IMG/VR virus record: IMGVR_UViG_2579778702_000001
Length of the DNA stretch: 23,294 nt
Source: a virus
Lineage: Duplodnaviria; Heunggongvirae; Uroviricota; Caudoviricetes
Strand: one strand, 5' to 3'
Shown here: positions 1-93 of the stretch, one piece after another
Layout: every line of letters starts with the position of its first letter
Position numbering within the stretch: position 1 is the stretch's first letter
Program-made: the position numbers and the translations under genes
The notes under the pieces: model-generated
The model's database searches: none
The model's input: the letters and a program-made list of their open reading frames with translations, nothing else
Told to the model about the DNA's origin: nothing

Positions 1-93
1 GGGTCTAACTCTGCCGATAATATAGCGGGCGTTTATTACAGACCCGTTCAAAAGTATATAAATGGCACCTGGTATAATGTAGCGAGCGTTTAA
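1..93 (+). CDS. 3' end of an alternative side-tail-fibre C-terminal (variable) cassette; 5' part lies outside the window
   Basis: Frame 1 is open from position 1 to a TAA at 91-93 and reads ...[19 protein letters not shown], matching the C-terminus of the minus-strand stf product (...[19 protein letters not shown]). It is followed 1 nt later by the plus-strand tfa-like start, mirroring the stf-tfa junction on the other strand. Confidence 0.6.

Follow-up and report, generated by a model that had tools for sequence, protein, structure and literature searches.

The window, that is, the whole stretch of DNA that was analysed (23,294 nucleotides), carries on its minus strand the late-region order J, lom, stf and tfa of a lambdoid prophage. 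J (4728-8207, minus strand) and lom (4055-4660, minus strand) were identified from the list of open reading frames (ORFs) and the annotation of near-identical genomes. The side tail fibre gene, stf (1187-3991, minus strand), was identified as an ORF of 934 amino acids; the N-terminal domain of its product is lambdoid (PF08400), the shaft rich in Ala and Ser and the distal part of the Mu/P2 type. The shaft, at 2131-3700 (residues about 100 to 620), is an Ala/Ser/Thr-rich stretch of low complexity with many spurious overlapping ORFs on both strands, and in NCTC86 stf is split within it. At the left end of the window, positions 1-93 of the plus strand encode 30 codons and the stop codon of a silent alternative tip cassette ("type A", ending in tip A), the tip of the expressed Stf being tip B.

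The context left of the window was taken from E. coli NZ_OZ040035.1 (L001), which is 100% identical to positions 1-2130 of the window and whose sole difference from it lies in the Ala/Ser-rich stf shaft, with 30 mismatches in 1,865 nt. What is said below on the left part of the segment was deduced from this and other genomes, as the window itself does not reach that far. In L001 the silent cassette is located at 5143-6093, about 0.8 kb of it lying to the left of the window. It encodes 297 amino acids without a start codon, and a TAA is found inside the crossover site just upstream. The original prediction took the frame ending at 93 for the end of an alternative, silent tip, a reading to be given up if the upstream part showed no similarity to tail-fibre proteins; the upstream part recovered from L001 consists of 297 codons that do match tail fibre.

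Each tip is placed directly before its own tfa gene, as had been proposed. In cassette A the TAA at 91-93 is followed by the ATG at 95 of a tfa of 528 nt (95-622, plus strand, 175 amino acids), and in cassette B the TAA at 1189-1187 is followed by the ATG at 1184 of a tfa of 534 nt (651-1184, minus strand, 177 amino acids), the gap between stop and start codons being 1-2 nt in both. Both products are Caudo_TAP proteins (PF02413), with 129.9 and 117.9 bits against a Pfam gathering threshold of 22.1. TfaA shares 91% identity with Mu U, which is the Tfa chain in PDB 5YVQ. TfaB has a C-domain 99% identical to that of Mu U', whereas its N-domain is an allele of its own, with 76-77% identity to U and U'. 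The two proteins are 56% identical to each other, and the C-domain, usually called conserved, is the more divergent half. The N- and C-domains of Tfa reassort independently, as in the U'-type C-domain joined to a different N-domain in TfaB and in a further locus (L011 6261-6794) where the N-domain of the tip A type is found with another C-domain. The two convergent genes are separated by a 28-nt spacer (623-650) with a GC-rich hairpin at 628-647 and T/A runs, likely a bidirectional terminator.

A 26-bp crossover site of the gix/pix type, TTCTCGTAAACCGAGGTATTCGATAA, was identified at 2099-2124 by comparison with Mu gix, TTCCTGTAAACCGAGGTTTTGGATAA. It lies inside stf, at codons 623-631 (EYLGLRE), and marks the junction between the constant and the variable part of the gene, in agreement with the earlier placing of the exchangeable part from residue 630 or thereabouts. 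Its inverted partner, TTATCTAAAACCTCGGTTTACGAGAA, was identified at L001 5135-5160, about 0.85 kb to the left of the window. Both 26-bp sites match Mu gix, TTATCCAAAACCTCGGTTTACAGGAA, and, as two inverted sites of the gix/pix consensus, the second one outside the window, they flank a segment of about 2.96 kb.

The Mu G segment has the same order: tip, tfa of 528 nt, 28-nt spacer, tfa' of 534 nt, tip' and invertase. Nucleotide identity with it is 84.8% over 1,218 nt (window 31-1240), from motif to motif, and the likeness includes the gix-like crossover sites and the two Tfa proteins, with 91% identity of TfaA to U and 99% of the TfaB C-domain to U'. Because of this layout, this identity, the gix-like sites and the remnant of Gin described below, the locus is considered a G-segment-type invertible host-range module placed on a lambdoid stf. 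Positions 1-93 are, as read from the sequence, the tail end of an unexpressed tip cassette in this Mu-G-like segment. Since the block shared with Mu starts and ends at the C-terminal motifs of the two tips, the motif, tfa, spacer, tfa' and motif would act as one mosaic unit. The variable cores would be exchanged, with the block at 31-1240 staying together. Differences from Mu are the location of the segment in a lambdoid prophage, fused to a PF08400-type Stf, whereas Mu is a Mu-type myovirus; an invertase truncated to 60 amino acids; two variable cores that are both unlike those of S and S'; and, compared with Mu Sv/Sv', cassettes that share 739 nt of perfect identity.

When the segment was flipped in silico, one continuous Stf ORF ending in tip A was obtained with the frame kept, and the C-terminal part of the fibre was exchanged together with its tfa. 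The joint formed by the constant part of stf (300 nt), tip A and TfaA occurs as one contiguous stretch, with an identity of about 98%, in at least 380 of the 5,426 complete E. coli genomes covered, and therefore tip A is functional and expressed elsewhere. This joint was identified in lambdoid prophages, again with a truncated invertase (L011), and in a P2-like prophage (L012) with an intact invertase of 199 amino acids. In the latter, identity with the present sequence is 98.6% over tip A, TfaA and 300 nt lying upstream of the crossover site, but the silent partner there is an S'-like tip, in place of the tip B that the lambdoid stf expresses in the present locus. The last 71 amino acids of tip A are also 100% identical in a Peduovirus record, and phase-variable tips have been documented in P2-like E. 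coli prophages (PMC4272514). The A/B pair itself is carried by only 6 of the 5,426 E. coli genomes, all six in the orientation of the window, and the exact flipped isomer of the pair was not found in any of the 5,426.

The invertase gene beside the silent cassette encodes a stump of 60 amino acids of the resolvase family (PF00239), 95% identical to residues 1-60 of Gin. The first 180 nt of the gene, the part where segments of the Gin/Cin/Pin/Hin type have their Fis-dependent enhancer, are kept in this lineage, and an intact adjacent serine invertase is absent from it. Because of this reduction the segment is probably locked in its present orientation, unless an invertase of the Pin/Gin type works in trans or the 739-nt repeat is used by RecA. 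Pin invertases act in trans on the segment of another prophage, as PinQ does on the e14 segment (PMC12529663). An invertase match was identified in 20 of 79 related viral loci, near full length in only 5. The arrangement of an invertase cut to 59-64 amino acids and then tfa fragments is located at L001 3708-5080, left of the window, and was also identified in L002, L003, L004 and L011; beyond the tfa fragments a class I SAM-dependent methyltransferase gene is present in L001, L002, L004 and L011. The same scar is found near potAB, trpA and ybhB, in prophages that differ in their chromosomal site, and the truncation is therefore old and widespread.

The two tips had been described as otherwise different apart from their ending, and this part of the original prediction was not sustained. 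Silent and expressed cassettes are perfectly identical over 739 nt from the crossover site on, about 250 amino acids, and form a perfect inverted repeat with one arm at 1377-2115 and the other in the proximal silent cassette (L001 5144-5882, left of the window). Identity breaks down in the codons of SRYV(K/R)DVRLG, stays at about 40% over 135 nt and returns to about 70% in the motif and across the Tfa N-domain (window 35-438), with 35-45% in the Tfa C-domain. Fibres with tip A and fibres with tip B thus differ in only about 45 residues just before the motif, plus the substitutions in the motif itself, which is where a variable and presumably receptor-specific part upstream of the shared ending had been expected. 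The perfect repeat suggests a recent gene conversion between the cassettes, and it could serve as a substrate for RecA-driven inversion despite the truncated invertase.

The shared motif comprises the last 17 residues of both tips, encoded at 40-90 on the plus strand (tip A) and at 1190-1240 on the minus strand (tip B, expressed Stf). As originally noted, the extreme C-terminus is common to both proteins: 13 of the 17 residues are identical, with four substitutions, and both copies keep the same register relative to the stop codon. When all six frames of the window were translated, INGTWYN was identified in these two places only. At the nucleotide level the two copies are 72% identical over 54 nt, the longest identical run being 8 nt, and 7 of the 13 conserved codons differ synonymously, which argues for selection on the protein and bears out the view of the shared ending as a conserved element. 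Chance as the source of the match was ruled out by this codon evidence and by the recurrence of the motif in dozens of independent tips.

The similarity might also be held at the DNA level, the motif being a homology patch or mosaic joint for the exchange of inserts, or the product of a recent gene conversion. This is improbable. It would fit the block about 85% identical to the Mu G segment, which spans 31-1240 from motif to motif, the step in cassette identity, from some 40% to some 70%, that coincides exactly with the motif, and the homogenisation of the proximal 739 nt by gene conversion. However, the copies of the motif, with their 72% identity, seven synonymous differences and runs of at most 8 nt, offer too little for a RecA-type exchange, and the protein motif persists in distant phages where the flanks are unrelated. 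On the same synonymous differences, identity and run length, a recent gene conversion or DNA exchange within the motif itself was ruled out.

The motif forms the end of a terminal domain of about 70 amino acids in the expressed Stf (1190-1399, minus strand), ending in NVSQV, a homologue of the C-terminal domain of Mu S. Over its last 70 or so residues Stf gave a match to 5yvq_A (E=1.1e-15, chain residues 423-502), and it also matches 8ju3_A, an S/S' chain that ends in RPIQYCINGTWYNAG, with E=1.1e-56. An AlphaFold2 model was obtained for the last 110 amino acids, as a monomer of what is a trimeric fibre, with a mean pLDDT of 78 and a pTM of 0.46; in Foldseek the only significant matches of this model were 5YVQ and 8JU3. 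In the model the motif is a hairpin made of a strand, an NG turn and a second strand (TWYN), the last two blocks having pLDDT values of 89 and 79. In Pfam no model was found for the last 70 amino acids, and the only matches, gp37_C and gp37_trimer, lie upstream. By homology and in this model, the 17 shared residues are the predicted last beta-hairpin of a terminal domain of the Mu S/S'/P2 H type. Compared with the Mu fibre-Tfa complex (PDB 5YVQ, 8JU3), the terminal domain and Tfa are direct homologues, whereas the variable cores differ from that of Mu S.

The Stf tips carry RP.Q..ING.WY followed by about five residues at the extreme C-terminus, which is the mark of the Mu S/S'/P2 H type. Mu S and S' both end in RP(V/I)Q..INGTWYN, like tips A and B, so the suggested comparison with them was apt. 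In an alignment of 31 diverse tips three conserved patches were identified, V.D(V/I)RLG, SG.V.TG and RP.QK.INGTWYN, with Q, N, G and W invariant and hypervariable stretches between the patches. The motif is present in 56 of 74 homologous fragments, and in all but two of the 56 exactly five residues follow WY; this set consists mostly of short fragments and was used for motif statistics only. In 64 of 66 representatives with the motif, the Trp is located 5-7 residues before the C-terminus. The terminal domain itself gave 97 matches among 1.84 billion representatives, in proteins of 45 to 1358 amino acids, matches the terminal residues of 8 PHROG fibre families and was identified in 211 phage records, including P2 H, P7 Sv', D6, phapecoctaviruses and Certrevirus, with at least 519 relatives in viral contigs. 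The amino-acid motif is kept in distant phages with unrelated flanks.

This distribution bears on two further explanations. The motif lies within the distal receptor-binding domain of the fibre (PMC7291167) and could be a receptor contact that binds a conserved part of the LPS core. However, it is common to tips of different specificity (Mu S and S', P2 H, tips A and B) and was also identified in phages of Yersinia, Cronobacter, Pectobacterium and Salmonella. For this reason specificity is placed outside the motif, and a receptor contact is very improbable. The about 40 hypervariable residues framed by the patches presumably set receptor specificity. Even less credible is a constraint on the 3' end of the fibre gene as a site for ribosome binding or translational coupling of tfa. 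Only 1-2 nt indeed separate the stop and start codons, but such a signal would constrain only the last 3-5 codons, which are the least conserved (VASV, VSQV, AGSI), whereas the invariant Q, NG and W are encoded 20-45 nt upstream and vary at synonymous sites.

The association of tip and Tfa was observed in other phages as well. In the 79 related viral loci, 99 of 103 motif-ending tips are followed by an ORF at -5 to +18 nt, and all 99 of these ORFs match the Tfa HMM. In strain 90-1 (L003 5153-5278) the annotated stf stops 126 nt before the start of tfa and is devoid of the terminal motif, and looks like a frameshifted or truncated fibre gene. Twelve tip/Tfa pairs were checked by hand, and in these a given tip family goes with one C-terminal signature and one family of Tfa N-domain, both specific to it; the eight Mu-type tips of this set all pair with a Tfa N-domain of the Mu U type. 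In three Mu-type tips from distant phages (ESCO5, CR8 and SE1_KM) divergence affects the motif as well as the Tfa N-domain. In a set of 69 unique pairs, one cluster of Tfa N-domains (at least 85% identity) serves three different variable cores with the canonical motif, and the deviant motifs (QYCINGTWYNAGSI, QKYISGNWYNVEQA and others) have each their own Tfa N-domain cluster.

In Mantel tests with 64 pairs, rerun without the three distant phages that partly drove the first run, the highest correlation was that of the motif with the Tfa N-domain (r=0.84), followed by the variable core with the motif (0.74), the Tfa N-domain with the Tfa C-domain (0.65) and the motif with the Tfa C-domain (0.53), values that are confounded by linkage (the motif adjoins the 5' end of tfa) and shared ancestry and come from non-independent samples dominated by E. 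coli. The set of related loci comprises close relatives of tip B only, which limits the diversity covered by the test, and the tightest co-variation of the motif being with the Tfa N-domain is suggestive. In Mu, the target of the Tfa N-domain is the distal, receptor-binding domain of the fibre, and Tfa stays on the virion, one Tfa being bound per fibre chain (PMC9608196, PMC7291167, PMC8174754); the C-domain is thought to drive oligomerisation or trimerisation (PMC9608196). A chaperone-recognition or trimerisation segment, as the ending had been called, is plausible in view of the co-variation and of the Mu work (PMC7291167, PMC9608196), and a putative direct contact between hairpin and Tfa may be the reason for the conservation.

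The most serious alternative, possible though doubtful, is that the motif is kept purely as a core for the fold or trimer, that Tfa binds the variable loops and that its correlation with the Tfa N-domain reflects genetic linkage. An invariant NG turn with alternating hydrophobic residues (I, W, Y, V) is typical of a structural hairpin, the coding sequence of the motif directly adjoins tfa, so that linkage alone raises the correlation, and Mu Tfa is reported to help bind the LPS that the fibre itself binds, which would put Tfa near the specificity loops (PMC8174754, PMC10579305). However, the service of a single Tfa N-domain cluster to three quite different cores is hard to square with recognition of loops only, and the correlation between the motif and the Tfa N-domain is higher than that of other adjacent segment pairs.

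Other Stf-Tfa systems of E. coli follow the same logic of a tip with its cognate Tfa, as in the e14 P segment (StfP/TfaP, StfE/TfaE and PinE) and in lambda and Rac. The comparison with StfE, StfR and StfP of K-12 that had been suggested proved not applicable, as these have other end motifs and other, non-homologous Tfa N-domains. Lambda Stf, Rac StfR and e14 StfE (L010, L009 and L008) share the ending NIAFNYIVR(L/A)A and a Tfa N-domain of the lambda type, their upstream parts being different, and e14 StfP ends in YYYNWIAIGY with a third type of Tfa N-domain. In e14 inversion is driven by Pin and can be catalysed in trans (PMC12529663), but its crossover repeats differ from those identified here. 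A tip of the lambda Stf/T4 gp37 type was rejected for the present stf, which lacks the NIAFNYIVRLA end and is lambdoid only in its N-terminal PF08400 domain. A family-specific C-terminal signature coupled to a type of Tfa N-domain may be a general rule, as seen in lambda Stf, StfR and StfE.

The likely reading is thus a silent cassette in a Mu-G-like segment of about 2.96 kb placed on the stf of a lambdoid E. coli prophage, with the hairpin as a terminal-domain scaffold serving the Tfa N-domain. Inversion between the site at 2099-2124 and its left partner would swap tip B and TfaB for tip A and TfaA with the frame kept, by means of a trans-acting invertase of the Pin/Gin type or of RecA on the 739-nt perfect repeat. 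The hairpin would provide the terminal domain with its invariant scaffold and contribute to the surface, or to the folding nucleus, used by the Tfa N-domain of the Mu U type. One family of Tfa N-domains could in this way serve many receptor-binding inserts, specificity being carried by some 40 residues framed by the conserved patches. A bolder proposal, rather unlikely, is that the terminal hairpin is a universal "handle", at once docking site of the Tfa N-domain and mosaic joint, and that the copy described here might flip or convert through RecA. If so, the minimal host-range switch would be about 45 fibre residues and a Tfa, with inserts of about 40 residues exchanged at the hairpin.

All the components have already been described: inversion of the G-segment type, the tip domain of Mu S and P2 H and the Caudo_TAP chaperone; RefSeq genomes already contain this very sequence, with annotation. 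The shared ending is the hallmark end of a structurally solved domain, real but ordinary, and since domain, chaperone and inversion system are all described, no new biological question arises from it. Minor points beyond routine annotation are the restriction of the difference between the fibres to about 45 residues and Tfa, the 739-nt perfect inverted repeat, the Mu homology that begins exactly at the motif on both sides and the recurrence of the invertase stump in lambdoid prophages. For annotation, the left edge of the window is now identified as part of a host-range switch of the G-segment type, in which the functional difference between the two versions of the fibre is confined to those residues and the chaperone. 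The conserved frame formed by RLG, SG.V.TG and the terminal motif bounds the receptor-binding inserts and would be useful for the construction of chimeric fibres or tailocins that keep a single Tfa.
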